From: an uncultured delta proteobacterium
GTDB taxonomy: Bacteria > Desulfobacterota > Binatia > UBA9968
Direction: 5' to 3'
Length of the DNA stretch: 64,000 bases
NCBI GenBank assembly: GCA_963737905.1
Contig: CAVTUQ010000005.1
Location: 64,001-128,000, forward strand
A model generated the notes under the pieces. It was given only the letters and a program-made list of their open reading frames with translations. It did not search any database and was not told the origin of the DNA. Positions 464 to 38,701 of this stretch are shown here, piece by piece. Position numbers and translations under genes: made by a program. Positions within the stretch are counted from its first letter, which is position 1; every line of letters begins with the position of its first letter.

Positions 464-1723
464 CTATATCGGTTTTTCAGAACCGAACCGCCGCAACCCG
501 GGCAACGCGGCCCAGCAGGCGAGTGTGAGGATTGAACCGACGGCGCAGCCGAAGAGGAGTGAGCCCGGAGCTCCAATTAGTGCTGCCATAAAGCCGACTT
601 GAGTGGCTCCAACCGAGTTGGCGCCTTGGGAAAACATGTTAAAGACGGCGAAAGCTCTGCCGCGAACTTGGTCGGGAGTTAGAAGATGGAAAGTGGTTTG
701 GCGCATAACCGCTTGCAATGAGTTCACGAGTCCGAGGATTCCAAGCAAAAAAGCTGACAGCCAGAAGTTCGTGGATATTGCGAAGACTCCGACAGCCACC
801 GCGTAAGAAAAAAACGACCAGAGTGCCAAAAGTCCTTTGTGCTCGACATCGCCGATCACAAGCAGGAGGACGGTTCCGATAATCCCGCCTACCGCTGGAG
901 CTGAGGATAATACGCCGAAGCCGGCAGGTCCCACGTATAAAATATCTTTGGCAAAGATCGGCAGCAGCGGCCGGTAATAGCCCACTCCGGCGACTATGAA
1001 GTCGAGCATGACCATGGCCAAAACAATGGGCTCCGAAAAAAGAAACCGCAGGCCGCCCAAAAAACTCCCAGCGGAAAATAGCTCTCTTTTGCCATCCGGC
1101 GCTCCCGGCGTTTGAATGAGAATAATGCTGGCTGCTGCCGGAAGGTAGAACAAAGCATTGAACAGGTACGAGTTGCCGATATCCATCCATTCAAGACTCA
1201 CGCCGGCTATCATGGGACCTATGAAATGGGCCGCTTGGGACACGCTGGAGTTTAGCGACACCGCGTTCGTGAGATGGGAACGGGGCACGAGCTTCGAGAT
1301 CAACGCCATTCGAGTCGGATTGAGAACGATGTTCAGAGCTGAAGTCAGAGCGGTACCGAGGAGGATGTGCCAAACGCGAATGGAGCCGGCCAGGGTCAAG
1401 ATCCCCAAGGCGACGGCAACGAGCAAGTTGCCGGCCACAGTGATGATGAGGAGCTTTTTACGATCAACAAAGTCCGCCAGCGTACCGCCGAAGAGTCCGA
1501 ATGCGAATAGAGGAATTCCTTGGGCCAAGCCCGTCAGCCCAAGCTGAAGCGCAGAGCCCGACAATTCATAAACCTGAAAGAGGTTCTGAGTCAGGCGCAT
1601 CTGTTGCGCTGTGGTGGCAAAAAGCGCAACGGAAAAAAGCAGGCGGTAGTCGCGATATCCGAGCGAAGCCCAGGGGGACCGCGATTTGGGCAAATCGGTG
1701 CTATCCAATTGATCGTCGGCCAT
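464..1723 (-). CDS. MFS transporter (EntS/DHA3-like)
   Basis: About 12 hydrophobic segments, motif A GGTLADFVDRKKL, C-terminal TPDQVRGR. Confidence 0.9.
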   Translation of the reverse strand: MADDQLDSTDLPKSRSPWASLGYRDYRLLFSVALFATTAQQMRLTQNLFQVYELSGSALQLGLTGLAQGIPLFAFGLFGGTLADFVDRKKLLIITVAGNLLVAVALGILTLAGSIRVWHILLGTALTSALNIVLNPTRMALISKLVPRSHLTNAVSLNSSVSQAAHFIGPMIAGVSLEWMDIGNSYLFNALFYLPAAASIILIQTPGAPDGKRELFSAGSFLGGLRFLFSEPIVLAMVMLDFIVAGVGYYRPLLPIFAKDILYVGPAGFGVLSSAPAVGGIIGTVLLLVIGDVEHKGLLALWSFFSYAVAVGVFAISTNFWLSAFLLGILGLVNSLQAVMRQTTFHLLTPDQVRGRAFAVFNMFSQGANSVGATQVGFMAALIGAPGSLLFGCAVGSILTLACWAALPGLRRFGSEKPI

Positions 1724-1743
1724 TTGGAGCGGGTGGGAAGGTT

Positions 1744-2907
1744 TTACTTCTTACTGCTCCTGACGGCCTCGTCGTAAAGAAGCTTGAGAGGGATTTTCTT
1801 GGCGGCGGCAATTCGTTTCAGATCGTCGTATTCGGGGGCGACTCGTTTTGCACCGTCCGGTGCTCCAACGATTTTGACTCTGATTGTTCCGTAGCGTGTC
1901 TTAACCTTTTCTGATTTGCGCTTGAGGATGACCCGGCCCACGGGATAGTAGCGAACACCGATGGTCGAAGTTTCGCTCAGAATAATTCGCGCTAGCGCTT
2001 CTCGATCCTTCGGCTCGGCAATGACACGGAGCAGTGTCCCGGGCCGGTTCTTCTTCATTTGGATCGGCGATAGGAACACATCGCGCGCCCCGGCGGCCAA
2101 GAGACGATCGAAAACATAATCGTAAAACTCGGGATTCATGTCGTCGATGTTGGTTTCGATGACGAGCATCTCTTCTTGGCTCCATGGGGCAACGTCTGTG
2201 CCGATCACCAAACGGAACACATTGGGCCGATTTGGGAAATCTTTCTGTCCCGCCCCGTAGCCGATCTTTTCCATCGTCATGCTCGGCTGTGCACCGAAGC
2301 TCTTGCCCAGGGTGCTCACAATGGCAGCTCCCGTGGGGGTTACGGTTTCGCCATCGAGATCGATTCCCTGAACCGGCAATCCCTTTAACATTTCAAGCGT
2401 CGCTGGTCCCGGAAGCGGAAGAGGACCGTGTAGAGCACGGATCACGCCTCGACCTAAGGGAATGCGGGAAAAATGGAAGGCGTCGATGCCGAGTTCATCC
2501 GCGCCTGCCGCTGCGGCCATGATGTCGACGATTGAATCCGTTGCGCCGACTTCGTGAAAGTGGATTTTTTCGGGGGCGACGCCGTGGATCTTTCCCTCGG
2601 CTTCGGCGAGGCGAGAGAAGATATTAATGGCCGTTTCCTTCACCGCGAGACGAAGCCTGCTCCGCCTGATCAAGCTTCGAATTTGTTTCCAGGAACGCGC
2701 GGACTCCTGATGGGGACAAATGACGTGAAACTGAGTCGCGCGGATGCTGTGAATCGTTTTCTTGGCGACTGCGAGCCTGTATTTGAGGGTGGGGATTTTC
2801 TTGAGTTCCGACTTGAGCCTATTTAAGGGCAGACCGAGATCCAGCATGGCGCCGACAAACATGTCGCCGCTAATGCCGCCGATGAGGTCGCCGTAGGCAA
2901 TCCTCAC
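1744..2907 (-). CDS. larC: nickel pincer cofactor biosynthesis protein LarC (Ni insertase)
   Basis: GISGDMF, HFHEVGAxDSIVDI, TPTGAA, ETNIDD, MKKNRPG, ETSTIGVR and PEYDD motifs. Confidence 0.93.
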   Translation of the reverse strand: MRIAYGDLIGGISGDMFVGAMLDLGLPLNRLKSELKKIPTLKYRLAVAKKTIHSIRATQFHVICPHQESARSWKQIRSLIRRSRLRLAVKETAINIFSRLAEAEGKIHGVAPEKIHFHEVGATDSIVDIMAAAAGADELGIDAFHFSRIPLGRGVIRALHGPLPLPGPATLEMLKGLPVQGIDLDGETVTPTGAAIVSTLGKSFGAQPSMTMEKIGYGAGQKDFPNRPNVFRLVIGTDVAPWSQEEMLVIETNIDDMNPEFYDYVFDRLLAAGARDVFLSPIQMKKNRPGTLLRVIAEPKDREALARIILSETSTIGVRYYPVGRVILKRKSEKVKTRYGTIRVKIVGAPDGAKRVAPEYDDLKRIAAAKKIPLKLLYDEAVRSSKK

Positions 2908-30722: not shown

Positions 30723-33275
30723 CTAAGTCCCGGGGAAAAGCAGCTTCCTAGCAGCAATCTCAAGAAGGAAGAGAGCTGCTGCCCACATAATTAAGGCCTG
30801 ACGCAAGGGTCGATAGATGTTCGTAAGGTCTTGTTTTTGCAGCGACTCTAGAGACTCTGGATTAATTTCGCCGCCGCTGGTTTGAGCCAGTGTATTCAAC
30901 AACGAAAGGTTAAAATCGGGTCGTGGAAGTTCACTGCCGAGCTCATATGCCAAGCTGTAGCCAACGGGTGGATAGGTTACTCGCCGGCCCCGTCGCTCTT
31001 CTGTGAGTTCAACGTGATAATCCCCCGGAGCGGATAAAGGCAGCGCAACCTGGTAATGGCCGGCCGCCAATTTTCGTAGTGTTCCTTCCGCCTTGCCGCC
31101 TTTTCCATTGACAGAGAACCGGAATTGGCTATCCACACCGATATCCTCGTAGAGAAACAAATCCAGAAAAGGTCGGTTTGCAGAAATGCCAACCCGCGTC
31201 TCGTGAACAGGTATCGGATCACGCTCATCGCTGGGGCGCAGCCAACCGAGGACCTTATCCCAAAACGTCTGTAAAGCGCTCCACTGGATCCAGTTTTTGG
31301 TCCAACGACCCTCCAGGTCGGTCGTGAAAGCGGCGGCTCTTCCCTTCTCATATCGCCAGGAGGCCAGTATGGGGATTTTTCGGTCGTCTCTGGGGAGCAT
31401 GAGGTCTAGGTGAGCCCCTCGCTTTAGCTCGGTGTCCATGTAACCGAACAGCCTTGGATAGGATCTCGCAGAAAAGCTTGCAAGTACCTCCGAACCTCTT
31501 TCTTGAACCGGGGTCAACTCCCTTTCGCCCTTCGGTTCCTCTGGAGGATTTTCTTGGAGCTGCTGCAGGACGATTTGTGGCAGGGAACTAGGATTAATCG
31601 TCTGATGGAATAAGCCGCCGCCATATTGACTAATCCGTTTCATGATTCGAATATCGGCTTCTGCGCCGATGGCGATAGCCGAAACAGTGACCTTCATCTC
31701 GTTCTTCATCACGCTTACGAGATCCACCAGCTCTCCCTGCGTCCCTCGGGTTTCTCCATCGCTCAACAAAATGACATGCTTTCGCGCCGCGTTGGCTCGT
31801 TCGATCTGTCGTTTGGCTTCTATGAGGGCTGGATAAAAATAGGTTTGTCCTCCCGGTTTCAGACGGTTAATCTGAGCATCGATAATCCCCCGAAGCTTGC
31901 CTACGGCTTCCAGCGGTACAACTACGAACGGGGTAACATCGAAGCCTATTATCCCAAGAAGATCATTATCCTTGAGCTGGCGGGCCACGGCCTTAGCAGC
32001 TTCCTGAGCGTACAGGATACGGTTTTCTTCGCGCATACTGCCGGACTTATCGATGACAAGAATAATGGCCCGGTTCCTTTCCTCCCGCTTCGGTTCCTTT
32101 GGCTCCACCGGCAGTAAGGCCTCGATTGGCGTGCGGCTGTAGCTTCCAGGGGCAAAGCTGGCATCGCTTCCCAGCATCAAAAAACCATTGCCCTGAGCGG
32201 TGTGCCGCTCGACGGCAGAAAGATAGTTAGGGGAAAATTTGCTGCGCTCGACATTGTTGAAGATTACAACTCCATAGCCTGCCGGTGACGGTGGGCTGCC
32301 AGCAGGATATGAGGCTACCTCGAATCCTTGCCGTTTGAGAATTTCTTCTAAATAGCGACCGCCATTATTTTGCCCGCTCAGCAACAAAACCTTCGCCTTC
32401 GTTTTCACTGCCACCCACGCGACAGCTTGGTTGTCCGCCAAGTTAATATCCAGTTCGGCCTGTCGTGGCATGAACTGGGCCCGATAAGAGACGACCGGAT
32501 TGTCGGGAAGTATCGTCTGGTAGGTGTAAATTTGGCTTCCCGGTTTGAGCTTAATGCTCTCTGACTTTAGATTCTGATTGTTCCGTGTCAATATCAAAGT
32601 TCCTTCGACTTCATCTTCGCTTTGGTTTTCGAGAACCACTCTTAGATTTGCGGCTTCGCCACTTTTCCCCTGGTTGGGGATCACGAGTCTTTTTACGGCC
32701 ACGTTATGGATCTTGAGCTGCTCCGTCGGAAGAACGGGGAAAATCTTAAGCCTAGAGGCCGCGATTGCCGGTAACAAGTGCTCCACATTTCCCTGTGTTT
32801 CCCAGCCGTCGGTGAACAGGAAGAGGCTGCGCGGCGCTGGGGGAAGGGCCAGCAACGCCGCGAACAACTTTTCCAGGTCGGTCTTGGCCGGCTGAATCGG
32901 CTCTAGGTGGGCACCGTCCTTCTTGAGCCATTCACGCCAGTCCGGAGCTTCCTTCGTATCGGAGGCGAAAACGAAGACGCGGTCTCGCTCGGTGGGAGCG
33001 ATTTCCCCGTCAGCCGTGGCTTCCATCCAGCGGCGCATGGCGGGGGTTACGCTTTGTGAGATATCGAAAGCGAAAATTCGCTCTTCTTGCTTAGTCTGTC
33101 GAGTAACCCACTGAGGGTCGGCGAGACCACAAATCAGCAGCAAAAAAATAATGGTTCTTGTGAAAATGACAAGTAATCTCTGATCACGGACGCGTATCCA
33201 GAGAAGCGGTAGCCCGAGCAGCAGCCAGAGAAACAGCGGCTTAAAAAATTGAATCTCCGAGAGAAGTTCTTTCAT
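30723..33275 (-). CDS. membrane-anchored double-VWA protein with glutamine-amidotransferase-like domain
   Basis: N-terminal BatA-like TM, DISQS..FTDG, DKSGS..LSDG MIDAS motifs, C-terminal TM. Confidence 0.85.
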   Translation of the reverse strand: MKELLSEIQFFKPLFLWLLLGLPLLWIRVRDQRLLVIFTRTIIFLLLICGLADPQWVTRQTKQEERIFAFDISQSVTPAMRRWMEATADGEIAPTERDRVFVFASDTKEAPDWREWLKKDGAHLEPIQPAKTDLEKLFAALLALPPAPRSLFLFTDGWETQGNVEHLLPAIAASRLKIFPVLPTEQLKIHNVAVKRLVIPNQGKSGEAANLRVVLENQSEDEVEGTLILTRNNQNLKSESIKLKPGSQIYTYQTILPDNPVVSYRAQFMPRQAELDINLADNQAVAWVAVKTKAKVLLLSGQNNGGRYLEEILKRQGFEVASYPAGSPPSPAGYGVVIFNNVERSKFSPNYLSAVERHTAQGNGFLMLGSDASFAPGSYSRTPIEALLPVEPKEPKREERNRAIILVIDKSGSMREENRILYAQEAAKAVARQLKDNDLLGIIGFDVTPFVVVPLEAVGKLRGIIDAQINRLKPGGQTYFYPALIEAKRQIERANAARKHVILLSDGETRGTQGELVDLVSVMKNEMKVTVSAIAIGAEADIRIMKRISQYGGGLFHQTINPSSLPQIVLQQLQENPPEEPKGERELTPVQERGSEVLASFSARSYPRLFGYMDTELKRGAHLDLMLPRDDRKIPILASWRYEKGRAAAFTTDLEGRWTKNWIQWSALQTFWDKVLGWLRPSDERDPIPVHETRVGISANRPFLDLFLYEDIGVDSQFRFSVNGKGGKAEGTLRKLAAGHYQVALPLSAPGDYHVELTEERRGRRVTYPPVGYSLAYELGSELPRPDFNLSLLNTLAQTSGGEINPESLESLQKQDLTNIYRPLRQALIMWAAALFLLEIAARKLLFPGT

Positions 33276-33295: not shown

Positions 33296-35086
33296 TTAGC
33301 CGGAACGCGTTCGAAGCAGACGCGGATTAACGAACCATTCCACCAGCAAGAGAAACAACGAAGCCAATAATAGGTAAGGCCAGATGGAAAATAGCGCCGA
33401 CGCCCTGCTGCCGCTGCTGCTTGCCTCCCGGAGTTCAATGGGAGTTGGCGTGCGGAGATCAGATTCGTTTGTGTTTTCAAGGTTGACGGCAAAAAGCTCC
33501 CTCCGGGTGCCGCGATCGATTTGGTATAGGCCTTGGAAATAGGTGTCGGGAAAGTTATTTGCGCCTGGGTTAAGAGTGATCTTATCGCCTCTCGGAGTAA
33601 GGAGAAAGTTTCCTTGCTGCATAGAGCTAAAGGTAAGGGACGCGCCGGTAGCTCTGTCCCCTCTTTCCGAAGCGTGAAAGAACCAGTCCAGCAGATTGAG
33701 GGTAAAGACTGAGACCGGTAGATTCTCTCGCCCCAGGTAAGGGAAAATATCGAACCCCAGGGCTAGCTGGCGAAGCCCGCGCCGCTCGGTTGCGAAAACG
33801 ATCGGTCCCGCGGTGCTCTCAATGATTGTCTGCCCGGATGACCTCGGCTTCAATGGGCGTGAAAACGCAGGCCGAAAAAGAGCGAAATTGACATAGCGGG
33901 TCAGCGGATGGGGCTCGCTCCAACTTGAAACGACTGGTCGAGAAACCGGCTTCTCCAAAGCGACCAGGGGGTTATTGTCGGGCGGAAGCACAAAAAGCGC
34001 GGGATTTCCGGGTAATACGGGGGGCGCCGCGTAATGGAAGATTTCCAAGTCGTATCCCGTGCGATCGATTTTATCGTATTCCTGAGGAGCGATGAGGTCT
34101 AAGCTCACCCCGGCAATAGAGCGCAGGCTATTGAGCGCTTGGGGTCGGGGGGATATTCCAAGGATGCGTAGGTTTTGCGCCGCCGGCGGTACGGCAAAAC
34201 GGCGATTATCGAGGGGCAAATCGTCACGGGCATCGATTTCGACTTCGTAGTAAGGGTGCGCTGGGAAGCCCGCGAAGGTCGCCTGTGCGGTCTTTCCCGG
34301 GGCGACCAACAGTTCGCGGCTGGAAATCGCTGCACCGCCACCTAGGAGCGTGATTCTCAACCGCTCATCTTTGGTTGAGAAGTTGGCGACCTCGGCCGTG
34401 GCTTCCAGTTGCGAACCGACCAAGGACGTATGGGAAATACTAAAAGCGCTCACAGCGAAGTTGTCTTTTGGCTGTCCTACGGTGATCACCCGTAACGTAT
34501 CCGTTTGGCCCGCAGCAGGGTGGTCGGTTACAAGAAAGACCCGGTCATACTTCAGCTGTTTTGCCAATTCGCTGAGGCTCTTCTGGTAGTCGATGGGGGT
34601 ATCCGACAAATCGTAGGGCGCCAGCGCGGTGAGGACACCGGCTGCTTCGGCTGGTTCAAAGGTGGCTCCGCGCACTCTTTCCAGCCGTGGTGCGGTAAGG
34701 TAAAGATCTACCTTGCCCGTGGAGCCCAGATCGGCCAGCAGCTCACGCGCTTTTTCCTGTGCCAGAGCGAACCGCGTTTGTTGGTTTTCGAGCGTTTGCA
34801 TGCTTGCAGAATTGTCCAGCACAATGGCAATGTTCGACGCCCGGAGGGAGAACACAGGCTCTCCAATCGCTAGAATCAATAGAGTCAGCAACAAGAGCTG
34901 GAGAAAGAAAATCAGCGGGAGGCGAAGTCTGCCCAGGGGCCGGCCGCCGGCGCGCTTACCCGGATCCGTGAACAGGAGCAGACTCGAAAAGATGACTCGC
35001 TGTGGTTTCCTTCTGATCAGGTATGGAATCAGCAGGAGTGGCAGCGCCAAAAGCCCGTACAAAGCCCCTGGATTTAGAAATTCCAT
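33296..35086 (-). CDS. BatA N-terminal plus VWA domain protein
   Basis: MEFLNP..LALPLLLIPYL..FSSL, LDNSASM, VTD, C-terminal LLVEW. Confidence 0.88.
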   Translation of the reverse strand: MEFLNPGALYGLLALPLLLIPYLIRRKPQRVIFSSLLLFTDPGKRAGGRPLGRLRLPLIFFLQLLLLTLLILAIGEPVFSLRASNIAIVLDNSASMQTLENQQTRFALAQEKARELLADLGSTGKVDLYLTAPRLERVRGATFEPAEAAGVLTALAPYDLSDTPIDYQKSLSELAKQLKYDRVFLVTDHPAAGQTDTLRVITVGQPKDNFAVSAFSISHTSLVGSQLEATAEVANFSTKDERLRITLLGGGAAISSRELLVAPGKTAQATFAGFPAHPYYEVEIDARDDLPLDNRRFAVPPAAQNLRILGISPRPQALNSLRSIAGVSLDLIAPQEYDKIDRTGYDLEIFHYAAPPVLPGNPALFVLPPDNNPLVALEKPVSRPVVSSWSEPHPLTRYVNFALFRPAFSRPLKPRSSGQTIIESTAGPIVFATERRGLRQLALGFDIFPYLGRENLPVSVFTLNLLDWFFHASERGDRATGASLTFSSMQQGNFLLTPRGDKITLNPGANNFPDTYFQGLYQIDRGTRRELFAVNLENTNESDLRTPTPIELREASSSGSRASALFSIWPYLLLASLFLLLVEWFVNPRLLRTRSG

Positions 35087-35089
35087 AGT

Positions 35090-35983
35090 CTATTTGAAAA
35101 GCCCAATGGCCGGCAGGGTTGCAAAGACGAAATTGTCCAGCTCGAGGTCCGTCACATAGAGTGAGTAATGAATACCGCTTTGATGGCAGAAGCTGCGAAT
35201 TTGTGAATTGTGCTGGGACAACTTAGCTTGGTAGTCTTGCCGCGCGCCGGCGTCCCACTGGAATCCAATTTCTGCGTTGGTTTCACTGTCAACGACCCTC
35301 AGACTGCCATCAGAGAACGGGGGGTCGACTTCCTGGCGGGTCAATACTTGAATAACCGCGATATCGAGATTGAAGGCGCGCAATAGATTCAGTCCTTGTT
35401 GATAGGAGACTGCGGGCATCAAGAAGTCGGAAATCAGGATTGCCTTTCCCGGCCGGCGCAGTCTTCTTAAGTGCTCTGCCAGTGCCGGGGCCAGCTCCAA
35501 AGGCCCCTCCGGGGTCGATGAGGTGATGAATTGGATGCAATCGGTGATGCGGCGCCGCCCGCGAAAAAAGGGCGAGGCAGCATGGGTGAAAGAGTCGCCG
35601 AGCAGATGCAGTTTGACGTGATCGTGATTGGCCAGGACGACGTAGGAAAGGGCTGCCGCGATGTGGCTCGCCGGCAGAAATTTTTGCTTGGGCGATGGAA
35701 AGGCCATCGATGCGCTGGCATCGACGAAGATGTAGGCAAAGAGATCGACCTCTTCGCGAAATAGTTTTATGTAGAGCCGGTCGCTACGAGCATAGATACC
35801 CCAATCCAGATAGCGAAGATCATCCCCCGGAGCGTATCTGCGATAATCGGCGAACTCTAGACTGGTGCCCCGTTTGGGCGAGGAGTAGTTGCCCGTGTGG
35901 CTGCCCAGGAATTCCTTTCTCGTACGTAACCTGAGAGTTTCCAATTGGCTGAGAAATTGGGGCGTAAATGGCTCAGGCAGCAT
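35090..35983 (-). CDS. DUF58 family protein (usually MoxR-associated)
   Basis: EFADYRRYAPGDDLRYLDW, DASASM, ISDF. Confidence 0.93.
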   Translation of the reverse strand: MLPEPFTPQFLSQLETLRLRTRKEFLGSHTGNYSSPKRGTSLEFADYRRYAPGDDLRYLDWGIYARSDRLYIKLFREEVDLFAYIFVDASASMAFPSPKQKFLPASHIAAALSYVVLANHDHVKLHLLGDSFTHAASPFFRGRRRITDCIQFITSSTPEGPLELAPALAEHLRRLRRPGKAILISDFLMPAVSYQQGLNLLRAFNLDIAVIQVLTRQEVDPPFSDGSLRVVDSETNAEIGFQWDAGARQDYQAKLSQHNSQIRSFCHQSGIHYSLYVTDLELDNFVFATLPAIGLFK

Positions 35984-35996
35984 TTAAACGTTGGGG

Positions 35997-36692
35997 TCAA
36001 AGACCGACATAAGCAATCGGGTCGTCGAGCCCGACCTCCTTGAAACCTTTCAAACGGAGTTGGCAACTGTCGCACAGCCCACAAGCGCGTCCGTCGGGTG
36101 CAGGATCATAGCAACTCCAGGTGAGACCATAGTCTAGGCCAAGTTCGATGCCTTTTCTAATGATCTGTGCCTTGTTCATTGCAATCAAGGGCACATGAAT
36201 CTTGATCCGGCTCTTGCCTTCGACCCCTGCCTTGGTGGCCAGGTTGGCCATCGCCTCGAATGCGCGAATGTATTCCTCTCGGCAGTCCGGATAACCGCTG
36301 TAATCGAGCTGGTTGGCGCCGAAGAAAATATCTCCGGCCTCAATGCGCTCCGCTAGAGCCAGGGCAAAAGCGAGGAAAATCGTATTCCGCGCCGGAACAT
36401 AGGTAACGGGGATATCGCCGGCCATTTCTTTTGTGCTTCGCCCCTTGGGCACGTCTATTTGGTCGGTAAGCGCGGAGCCGCCGATGGAGCGAAGATCGAA
36501 ATCGGTCACCCGGTGGGTTTTCGTTTGTAAAAATGCCGCCACCTTCTTGGCGGCATCGATTTCCCGCTGATGGCGCTGCCCATAACGAAAACTCAGCGCG
36601 TGAAGCTGGAAGCCCTGCTGTTTGGCTATCGCGGCGGCGGTGGCGGAGTCGAGCCCGCCGCTCAAGAGAATAACCGCGTCTGTCCCTATCAT
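35997..36692 (-). CDS. queC: 7-cyano-7-deazaguanine synthase
   Basis: [40 protein letters not shown]; start at ATG 36692. Confidence 0.97.
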
Positions 36693-37165
36693 TTTTGCGG
36701 CGAGGTGATTTTTGTCCCTTCCACCGGGTAGTGTTTTTGATACCAGCCGACAATGCCCTCGTCGAGGACTTTCATGTTGCGGTAACCCTTTTCGTAGAGA
36801 ATGCCATAGGCCAAACTGGCCAGGTGATGGGGACAAGCTCAATACAAGATGACTAATCGATCCTTGGGAATGCTTTGCACATAAGCATTGAACTCCGTGA
36901 GGGGCGCAGATATCGCGCCCAAAATGTGCACCTCACGGTACTCTTCGTCAGTGCGCACGTCGATGATCAGCGGCTTTTTTCCCGATTGGATATCTTTCGT
37001 GAGCTCATCCACAGAAATTAGTACAACGTTTGCCGGGGGTGATTGCTGGGCGAATTGGGGATATTTCGATGGATCGGCTTCGGCCGGCTGGCATCCGAAA
37101 AGAACACCCGCCAAAACTCCGACAATGAAGAAAGAGCTTGCTCGTGGACCAGGAAGGAGCTTCAT
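36689..37165 (-). CDS. rhodanese-domain lipoprotein, probable selenoprotein (UGA at 36839-36841 read as Sec), 158 aa
   Basis: Lipobox LFGC, IIDVR, HILGA, then [48 protein letters not shown], which completes the rhodanese fold. Final TGA overlaps the queC ATG. Confidence 0.85.
36804..36830 (-). promoter_or_regulatory. putative bacterial SECIS hairpin
   Basis: CCAU-caccu-GGCCA-GUU-UGGCC-u-AUGG begins 8 nt after the UGA; apical-loop G is the 23rd base after the UGA. Confidence 0.6.
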
Positions 37166-38040
37166 GGTTTGCCTCCATCGTTTTTGTAGTTGCTATACTG
37201 CGCCAGGGCATCCAAGCTCTGGGTGCCCATGTATCGCTGGCCGTTGATTACCCAGGTGGGATAATTTTTTATCCCTGCATCGTCGCAGACCGCAGTTTGT
37301 CGAGATCCCGCGCCCGCTGAGCTACACTCGATATATGGAAGGCGGCGCTCGGAACTGCCGAAAAGCTCCTTTTGCTCGGCACAGTGCGGGCACCAGGATG
37401 CGCCGTAAAATTTAGCGTCGGTTTGCGCGAGATGTTCGGCCAAGCCGCGGATCCAGGGATCCTCGGGACCAGGGGCTTTACCCAGATAGCCGGCATAGTG
37501 GAGATGCAACGCGACCACTAGGACGAGAGCTGTCCCAACCGACTTGCCGAGCCAGGGGCCCCAAGAAAAGTGAGGTAAATTGGCGGGCTTTTGAAGAAGC
37601 AAGGTGACGAAAATTACTGTCATCAACCCCAAAGAAGTCAGGCAGTAGGGGCAGGCGGCCTGCAGCACGAAAAAGGAGATCCCGGTCAGGTATAAACTGT
37701 AGAGGAGTCCAATGACGGTGACGAACCAAGCGAACTTCCACTGGCTGTCGGCATACTTGTTCCAGGCGATGGCGGCCAGCAAAGCGTACGTTAGAAAGCC
37801 CCAGAACGACGTCGGCATGCCAAGTAAGGTCGACCAGCGGCTATTCAAAACAACATCACAGGCGCTACCCACCGTACAGCCGGCCACCAGCTTTCCTTGC
37901 CATGCGTTGAAAGTGAGATAGGCAGTCAACCCCATGCCGATGAGAGCGAGAATGAAGAGCGGCCAGTTCGGGCCCTCGCGCAATAAGCCCTGTTTATTTC
38001 CTCTCACGTCGGTTTTCTTATGCTTGGCTGACTTGGCCAT
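37162..38040 (-). CDS. VKOR (DsbB analogue) fused to a thioredoxin-like domain
   Basis: C-x6-CDVV..SRWS, CPYC; C-terminal FYGASWCPHC and YPTW. Confidence 0.93.
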   Translation of the reverse strand: MAKSAKHKKTDVRGNKQGLLREGPNWPLFILALIGMGLTAYLTFNAWQGKLVAGCTVGSACDVVLNSRWSTLLGMPTSFWGFLTYALLAAIAWNKYADSQWKFAWFVTVIGLLYSLYLTGISFFVLQAACPYCLTSLGLMTVIFVTLLLQKPANLPHFSWGPWLGKSVGTALVLVVALHLHYAGYLGKAPGPEDPWIRGLAEHLAQTDAKFYGASWCPHCAEQKELFGSSERRLPYIECSSAGAGSRQTAVCDDAGIKNYPTWVINGQRYMGTQSLDALAQYSNYKNDGGKP

Positions 38041-38053
38041 GGGAACGCTCCTA

Positions 38054-38701
38054 TTATCCTTTAACCAAAGTTGCGACGTCTTTTTTTAGTCGCTCTAATG
38101 CCTGCGGGTCTCGACTATCGTAATAGCCCCGAATCTCGGCTTGCTTGTCGATCAATACGAACCTTGGGCTGTGCATGATAATGCTTTCCGAGCTGCCCGC
38201 GTTGGCGACCGGAACCGCACTCAACTTGAATCCTTCTTGCACGAGCCGGGTGATGTCCTCTTTATCGCCGGTGAGAAAGAGCCAGCGGATTGAATCAGCC
38301 TTATAGCGATCCGCGTAGCGGGAGAGTACCTCAGTTGTATCCTTTTCGGGATCCACGGAGAAGGAAACCAGTTTCAATCCCGCTTTGTCTTTCCATTGCT
38401 CCTGAAGCTGCGCCATTTCTGCGGTTTGCATTGGGCAGGTATCGGTGCAAGTCGTGTAAATAAAGTCGGCGATCCAAATCGACCCCCGGAGGTCGGCCAG
38501 AGTGGTCGCCTTGCCGCTTCGCTCCACGAGAGAAAATTTAGGCACAGTTCCATAGCGGCTCATGCCTTCGAGGGGATTGGCATTCCACCCCGTCAATCCC
38601 GGTCTGGGTGCGAGCTTCAGCCAAAAAAAGGTACCGACGATAATTCCCAAACCGAGCACGGAGACGCCCAGCAGAAGAAAGCGCGCTTTTGAGAAGTTCA
38701 T
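38054..38701 (-). CDS. SCO1/SenC family copper chaperone
   Basis: TM anchor, FIYTTCTDTCP (CxxxC), SVDPEKD, W.FLTG, conserved His in HSPRF. Confidence 0.95.
   Translation of the reverse strand: MNFSKARFLLLGVSVLGLGIIVGTFFWLKLAPRPGLTGWNANPLEGMSRYGTVPKFSLVERSGKATTLADLRGSIWIADFIYTTCTDTCPMQTAEMAQLQEQWKDKAGLKLVSFSVDPEKDTTEVLSRYADRYKADSIRWLFLTGDKEDITRLVQEGFKLSAVPVANAGSSESIIMHSPRFVLIDKQAEIRGYYDSRDPQALERLKKDVATLVKG

Follow-up and report, generated by a model that had tools for sequence, protein, structure and literature searches.

A candidate U-x-C rhodanese selenoprotein encoded beside VKOR-thioredoxin and SCO1 genes in uncultured Binatia

The 64,000-nucleotide stretch analysed here (the window; positions 64,001 to 128,000 of contig CAVTUQ010000005.1, assembly GCA_963737905.1, from an uncultured delta proteobacterium of the GTDB lineage Binatia) carries on its minus strand a rhodanese gene in which an in-frame TGA occupies the codon for the catalytic residue. 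From comparison with its relatives, we consider it highly probable that the gene encodes a selenoprotein, with UGA-109 read as selenocysteine (Sec, U). The analysis demonstrates a recoding signature, the rhodanese fold, the position of Sec within it, an export signal and a conserved gene module, and the protein is novel relative to the known rhodanese selenoproteins in both its Sec position and its gene context. As a tentative and rather doubtful extension, the U-x-C rhodanese may serve a quinone-linked VKOR-thioredoxin relay and SCO1 as dedicated catalytic partner in a selenium-dependent periplasmic redox branch, the three genes making up a module so far known almost only from Binatia-like bacteria.

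An in-frame TGA at the catalytic position of a rhodanese

The annotated open reading frame (ORF; 37165 to 36842, minus strand) encodes 108 residues ending in LVILY, with the TGA at 36841-36839 as its stop. When this TGA is read as U, the frame runs on for 49 further codons to a TGA at 36691-36689, followed by TAG. The full coding sequence (36692-37165, minus strand) comprises 158 codons including UGA-109 (36839-36841). Its ATG overlaps the stop of the upstream VKOR gene, and its own stop shares TG with the queC ATG at 36692-36690 in an ATGA overlap. A mechanically called queC ORF starts at TTG 36842 and overruns the C-terminal part of the rhodanese in another frame; the real queC start is placed at ATG 36692 by its Pfam match and the ATGA overlap. 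A previous reading of the window, made from its letters and ORF translations without database searches (the sequence-only reading), had described a 108-residue ORF ending at this TGA after LVILY and a 49-codon continuation to the overlap with queC. The first was correct as described, and the second was confirmed by translation with TGA as U.

The Pfam Rhodanese domain (PF00581) matches residues 52-143, across the TGA, with an E-value of 3e-16 and 60.1 bits against a cut-off of 22.2. An AlphaFold2 model built on the homolog alignment (mean predicted local distance difference test score, pLDDT, 83.4) has a strand at residues 105-108, a loop at 109-113 and a helix at 114-125, and the modelled strand-loop-helix around residue 109 is the usual rhodanese active-site geometry. 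The best Foldseek matches were single-domain rhodaneses (3nhv, 6mxv and YgaP), and HMMER alignments to solved structures put residue 109 on their active-site Cys (e.g. YCGGGFRSA in 6mxv). The active-site loop codons U109-A-C111-P-H-H114 occupy 36824-36841; in the alignment of Sec and Cys forms, Y108 and P112 are invariant, and positions 109 and 111 nearly so. The Pfam match, the HMMER structure alignments and the Cys forms all support the earlier proposal of a rhodanese fold with Sec at the catalytic Cys position and Cys at +2.

Conservation of the TGA and selection on the frame beyond it

A six-frame search covered 61 genomes, namely the window's own and 60 relatives. An ortholog-level match with one in-frame TGA was obtained in 36 of them, the window's own included, and a match without a stop in one (G007). 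From these, 38 loci were taken (L023-L060), L023 being the window itself and one genome (G020) giving two loci. The site is TGA in 37 of the 38, that is, in 36 of the 37 relatives' loci, which come from 35 genomes of three families and range in identity from 81% to 40%. One of the TGA loci (L038) derives from a genome flagged unpublished (G012), and no claim hangs on that locus alone. All TGA loci carry the Sec-form motif LY-U-[A/Q/E]-C-P-[H/R]-H. The sole non-TGA locus, L049 of G007, reads FY-G-N-R-P-R-H, so that Sec and the +2 Cys are both lost, and its protein may be a non-catalytic derivative. This ortholog (G007:C39, about 1989-2459, minus strand) still lies between VKOR and queC; SCO1 was not seen in the 2.3 kb upstream.

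For analysis of the region downstream of the TGA, L049 (no Sec), L043 (cut by a contig end) and L029 (equal to L027) were dropped, leaving 35 sequences. Over the 40 codons after the TGA, these contain no in-frame stop, whereas the two alternative frames hold 41 and 17. Pairs of sequences differ on average by 0.216, 0.097 and 0.417 at codon positions 1, 2 and 3, and 70% of single-base codon differences are synonymous. Both the openness of the frame and its third-position bias are beyond chance, and on this comparative evidence the frame downstream of the TGA is under purifying selection.

Contigs from three DNA studies (Logan) span 36839-36841 and show no other letter at the TGA. One of them represents a strain about 90% alike, differing at 36833 and 36847, and the study with the best match may be the one from which the window came, so the contigs count as two or three independent confirmations. 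The sequence-only reading had proposed confirming the TGA in reads and looking for homologs with Cys or TGA at this column; homologs of both kinds were found, the Cys forms reading YCACPHH.

Were the TGA a true stop, the gene would be a truncated pseudogene, a 108-residue fragment or an assembly error. Gene callers and the NCBI annotation do end the protein at LVILY, and tRNA-Sec was not found in the assembly. However, the TGA and a selected open frame are kept in nearly all relatives' loci down to 40% identity, the three DNA studies agree on the letters, and by the structural model a domain without the C-terminal part would lose the active-site loop and two helices. We regard a true stop as extremely improbable, and sequencing error or a pseudogene as excluded for practical purposes.

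A SECIS-like hairpin downstream of the UGA

The sequence-only reading had also pointed to a hairpin with an apical G at the spacing of a bacterial selenocysteine insertion sequence (bSECIS). This hairpin, GGCCA-GUU-UGGCC, is present on the minus strand at 36821-36809 with its synonymous sites frozen. It has a 5-bp stem and a GUU (GUN) triloop, and starts 17 nt after the UGA, with the apical loop 22 nt after. In bSECIS elements the distance from the UGA to the apical loop is 16-37 nt and the loop contains a G, and the hairpin fits both the spacing and the loop G of this stem-loop.

Normalised synonymous entropy, calculated at conserved residues of the 35-sequence codon alignment, is 0.39-1.0 over most of the gene and 0.32 at Tyr108, and drops to 0.00-0.33 across codons 114-119. 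Ala116 is encoded by GCC in 31 of 31 sequences and Ser117 by AGT in 30 of 30; at Pro112, by contrast, all four codons occur. Pairing is kept in 98.2% of 170 hairpin cells, versus 58-59% after the partner is shifted by one column; the changes seen are G-C to G-U (five sequences) and A-U to G-U (one sequence), or lie within the loop. At L049, which has no TGA, the peptide HLASSAY is kept and the hairpin no longer pairs.

The genome's own selD gene carries a hairpin, GUGCAA-GUU-UUGCAC, 26 nt after its UGA, with a triloop identical to that of the rhodanese hairpin, and selD of four relatives has GUA or GUC triloops on stems of 6-7 bp. In this lineage, the element predicted to be bound by SelB thus appears to be a short stem capped by a GUN triloop. 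A search of the whole window with Rfam at gathering thresholds gave no matches.

Selenocysteine machinery and other selenoproteins of the genome

The genome (G000) encodes selA (606.9 bits), selB (409.8 bits) and selD (381.4 bits), all above their curated cut-offs and clustered on contig 29 at 71024-75669 (loci L001, L003 and L011). The selD product is itself a selenoprotein, with an in-frame TGA and Sec in KAAG-U-AAK. A second rhodanese selenoprotein (L061; contig 40, 2294-2608, minus strand) is encoded by a frame of about 383 residues with one TGA, and joins a DedA/SNARE-associated-type membrane domain to a C-terminal rhodanese, VVLYCS-U-PNEATSARVA, of the LYCxU type; it scores 75.6 bits against NF041203, under the cut-off. 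Similar frames of 330-390 residues with one TGA occur in several relatives. The assembly is 87.5% complete, in 46 contigs with 44 tRNA genes found, and tRNA-Sec was detected in four of five relatives tested (73-77 bits), one of them of the same genus. Of the Sec machinery that the sequence-only reading called for, selA, selB and selD are present, and tRNA-Sec was not found in the assembly.

This gap bears on a second alternative, in which the UGA is read through with a standard residue (Trp, Cys or Arg) by near-cognate decoding. Besides the missing tRNA-Sec, it is favoured by the fact that selenium in the protein is deduced from the DNA. However, the genome still encodes selA, selB and a selD of the Sec type, the UGA stands for the catalytic Cys, the conserved hairpin lies at SECIS spacing with a triloop as in selD, and TGA serves as the ordinary stop of the rhodanese gene itself and of its neighbour. 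Read-through with a standard residue is in our estimate very improbable.

Several points weigh against Sec insertion or the role proposed for the protein. The missing tRNA-Sec is the one gap in the case for Sec. The gene was not found in the assembly by ARAGORN; the best matches of Rfam RF01852 on the assembly were Leu and Ser tRNAs, below threshold; a DNA search of the assembly with the same-genus tRNA-Sec gave none; and the stretch of contig 10 syntenic to the tRNA-Sec locus of G002 (about 106.7-108 kb) contains no tRNA-Sec, yet the genome has selA, selB, selD and at least three UGA-containing genes. The hairpin is short, and the fold of 76 nt has a z-score of 0.76, with 153 of 200 shuffles folding at least as well, RNAalifold on 34 sequences gave another weak structure (-3.2 kcal/mol) and not the hairpin, and the locus alignment contains no compensatory double change at any hairpin pair. 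RNA contigs of one metatranscriptome cover 36959-37206, not the TGA, and contigs from an RNA library do not prove transcription. G007 keeps the gene without Sec or Cys, and part of the role may be non-catalytic. Lastly, the case for the relay draws on gene order, motif reasoning and the domain fusions of distant Cys forms.

The hidden selenoprotein proposed by the sequence-only reading is upheld by the TGA conserved in relatives, the selected downstream frame, the hairpin and selA, selB and selD. Of the combination that would speak against it, a genome lacking Sec machinery and relatives lacking the TGA, the first half is seen in the missing tRNA-Sec and the second is not seen, as the relatives carry the TGA.

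Comparison with known rhodanese selenoproteins

The best NCBIfam match of the window protein is NF041203 (rhodanese_LYCAU), at 65.8 bits versus a cut-off of 115 (59 bits in the genome search) and thus below it; of 301 genomes from the phylum, 48 have a match to NF041203 above its cut-off. Both are small single-domain rhodanese selenoproteins with Cys and Sec two residues apart after an LY strand. However, the true members of NF041203 read LYCA-U, LYCS-U or FYCT-U (e.g. LVLYCA*LNEATSA), with Sec at +2 from the catalytic Cys, whereas the window protein has the reverse order, LYUAC. The rest of the loop also differs, being CPHHLAS in the window protein and LNEATSA in NF041203.

A table in a 2026 review (PMC13188914) includes five rhodanese selenoprotein forms (UxxS; UxxG; CxU, which is NF041203; UxxG again; and UxxxxU, which is TsoB). 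No U-x-C rhodanese is among them, although the primary papers and supplements behind the table may list one under another name; UxC entries in the table are confined to a thioredoxin-like protein and a Cu/Zn efflux transporter (PMC13188914). To the extent of this table, the sequence-only reading was justified in calling the U-x-C form unfamiliar. Forms 1, 2 and 4 (UxxS and UxxG) are PF00581 proteins with Sec as the first residue of the motif, like the window protein, and differ from it in having no Cys at +2, a distinction drawn from the table motif alone (PMC13188914).

TsoB (NF045694, form 5) is tabulated as a rhodanese/DsbD fusion-like selenoprotein, and is thus a precedent for a Sec rhodanese combined with a membrane thiol-disulfide module (PMC13188914). 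It shares with the present locus the logic of a Sec rhodanese joined to such a module, here as a rhodanese beside VKOR-thioredoxin. TsoB differs in being a fusion, in having two Sec residues (UxxxxU) and in using DsbD, not VKOR, whereas the window protein is a single domain with one Sec; it scores 32.2 bits against NF045694, below the cut-off of 805.

According to a 2022 review (PMC9312934), the same domain with a different Sec site constitutes a different subfamily. By this rule, and relative to the forms in the table of PMC13188914, U-x-C would be a sixth rhodanese selenoprotein form. If the U-x-C rhodanese does belong to a selenium-dependent periplasmic redox branch, LYUAC and LYCAU would be two independent replacements by Sec of either Cys in one C-x-C rhodanese site, and the pair would constitute a natural experiment on the position of the nucleophile. 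This mirror relation is relevant to the evolutionary route from redox-active Cys pairs to Sec.

A full-text literature search found no description of a dedicated rhodanese selenoprotein beside a VKOR-thioredoxin protein, no paper on selenocysteine in Binatia or selenoproteins in Binatota, and no paper joining rhodanese selenoproteins with Sco1. For rhodanese with VKOR in the periplasm, the same search returned one general review only.

Relatives, Cys forms and distribution

Searching a protein collection gave 458 matches, and 116 of the best 120 end at L[V/I][I/V]LY and are therefore cut by gene callers at the same TGA. One entry (P0001, 154 residues) was called with W at the Sec site, and an NCBI-annotated homolog from a metagenome-assembled genome (MAG; P0084, 109 residues) is the truncated form, annotated as "rhodanese-like domain-containing protein". 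With well over 100 database entries ending at residue 108, this would be a widespread soil and freshwater selenoprotein family invisible to current annotation.

Cys forms were found in a search of 1.84 billion cluster representatives, which gave 10,255 matches at E <= 0.001. Among the best 150, which were inspected, 13 have [Y/F/V]-C-x-C-P, e.g. VVYCACPHHLSS in P0140 (41% identity), and four representatives end at LY too. The YC[A/G/S/V]CP[H/N/S] rhodaneses (P0140, P0181, P0192, P0245, P0251, P0255 and P0264) resemble the window protein in fold and loop at 32-41% identity, and differ in having Cys in place of Sec; some carry extra domains, and most have N-terminal signal-like segments. Cytochrome fusions occur among the 13, P0255 having one c-type domain with one CxxCH and P0264 two domains with two CxxCH. 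These fusions hint that the YCACPHH loop may exchange electrons with haem. The distant relatives further include tandem-rhodanese giants (P0121 and others) of up to 2327 residues with 16 matched stretches.

Among 25 related loci in public records, most are assigned to Candidatus Binatia MAGs, and some are labelled Deltaproteobacteria or Syntrophobacter. The stretch is also carried by contigs that several studies assembled from soil and freshwater metagenomes. Of 300 other genomes, sampled evenly across the phylum, only one (G096) has a related gene, with VVFY-U-ACPHF. This Sec form, VVFY-U-ACPHFLASLAY, lies in a distant family at L110 (G096:C287, about 1500-1760, plus strand), and its frame upstream of residue 79 is unlike the usual N-terminus and may represent a frameshift, a fusion or a fragment.

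Export of the rhodanese

Residues 1-30 (37076-37165, minus strand) form a signal peptide with a predicted cleavage site at AEA/DPSKY. The site was compared in 118 of the best 120 homologs, leaving out P0022 (no mature motif) and P0079 (N-terminally partial). An [A/G/V/S/T]-x-A sequence directly precedes the mature D-P-S-K-Y-P motif in all 118, as AxA in 87 and GxA in 26. A lipobox-like motif is present in two of the 118, and any Cys in the last 14 residues in eight. By sequence, the family is a signal-peptidase I substrate, with a mature product predicted to be soluble and periplasmic.

The sequence-only reading had proposed an exported lipoprotein. Export is supported by the signal peptide and its conserved signal-peptidase I site. 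The LFGC on which the lipoprotein claim was based is present at residues 22-25, five residues before the AEA/D site, but its Cys is not conserved, and the claim is unsupported. Lipidation as a family trait is rejected on the lipobox count of two versus a signal-peptidase I site in every homolog compared, and lipidation of the window's own member is unlikely.

A conserved SCO1-VKOR-rhodanese module and its proposed role

Upstream of the rhodanese on the same strand lie a VKOR-family quinone reductase gene with a thioredoxin-like domain containing WCPHC (37162-38040; Pfam VKOR, 2.2e-24) and, as the first gene of the module, a gene for a SCO1/SenC-family protein with CxxxC (38054-38701; Pfam SCO1-SenC, 6.9e-30). 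In 33 of the 38 loci the gene immediately upstream, on the same strand, is VKOR. SCO1 is found upstream in 30, again on that strand, and contig ends cut short at least three of the remaining eight; neither gene is present in three loci, and SCO1 alone in two. The module, with its thioredoxin-type VKOR, is found in families f1 and f3. The genes downstream differ, being queC and DUF58 in f1 (19 of 38 loci), and GST and SAM hydroxide adenosyltransferase in f3. Because the upstream genes are kept while the downstream genes vary by family, the conserved unit is SCO1-VKOR(thioredoxin)-rhodanese.

The closest known counterparts of the VKOR neighbour are the bacterial VKOR-thioredoxin fusions of the cyanobacterial type. 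Like such fusions, it has a loop Cys pair, a CxxC in the membrane domain and a C-terminal thioredoxin-like domain with WCPHC. Across 18 orthologs, C55, C61, C130xxC133 (CPYC) and W216-C217xxC220 (WCPHC) are invariant.

C-x-C pairs in tight loops are known as redox motifs. In the mechanism we propose, UGA-109 would be recoded by SelB and Sec-tRNA(Sec), directed by the hairpin 17 nt downstream. The Sec pathway would export the 158-residue precursor, and cleavage by signal peptidase I behind A30 would leave a single-domain rhodanese of about 128 residues, soluble in the periplasm, with Sec-109 at the catalytic Cys position at the start of the loop and Cys-111 two residues on. Following attack of the Sec-109 selenolate on a substrate, Cys-111 would resolve the adduct, forming an intramolecular selenenylsulfide. 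This Se-S bond would then be recycled by the WCPHC thioredoxin-like domain of the VKOR protein, with electrons passing to quinone. The rhodanese would thus be the substrate-facing member of a periplasmic thiol/selenol relay, also serving or using SCO1, and where the loop is fused to cytochrome domains it would deliver electrons to haem. Given a selenoprotein, we rate this relay, with selenolate attack, resolution by Cys-111 and recycling by VKOR-thioredoxin, as possible, though less likely than not.

Periplasmic rhodanese-type proteins such as PspE and the Wolinella Sud protein act as sulfurtransferases or sulfane-sulfur carriers, and the window protein may likewise be a classical one. Sec-109 would then form a persulfide-type adduct, Cys-111 would be incidental, and VKOR and SCO1 would be co-expressed envelope genes. 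In fold and in the placement of its nucleophile the protein does conform to single-domain rhodaneses, and it matches the NCBIfam models of PspE and GlpE weakly. However, the +2 Cys is nearly invariant in both Sec and Cys forms, the loop lacks the usual basic residue at its sixth position, the VKOR module persists in three families while other neighbours change, and some Cys forms are fused to cytochrome c. We consider a classical sulfur carrier unlikely.

Another role would be the handling of metals or metalloids, in which U-x-C-P-H-H binds or reduces copper (or selenite, arsenate or tellurite), acting with SCO1 in the assembly or protection of copper centres. The frequent SCO1 in the module and the Sec, Cys and His ligands supplied by the loop are in line with such a role. 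The first His, however, is replaced by Arg in f3, the His residues vary in the Cys forms, and the 18 kb around the module contain no cytochrome oxidase or copper genes. Metal handling appears quite improbable. Some unforeseen function other than the relay, sulfur carriage or metal handling takes the remainder of the probability.

The association with VKOR-thioredoxin and SCO1 suggests a testable role for periplasmic rhodaneses, and through the module the use of selenium in uncultured Binatia would be tied to redox or copper biology of the envelope.

Genes downstream of the rhodanese

The downstream neighbour queC (35997-36692, minus strand; Pfam QueC, 5e-74) suggested a link to queuosine. This was rejected, since queC neighbours the rhodanese in f1 alone. 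In the window, the operon continues past queC into DUF58, BatA and VWA genes. These form a Bat-like set on the minus strand, consisting of DUF58 (35090-35983), BatA/VWA (33296-35086) and a VWA/GATase1-like gene (30723-33275), and are followed by genes for an M23 peptidase and CinA.

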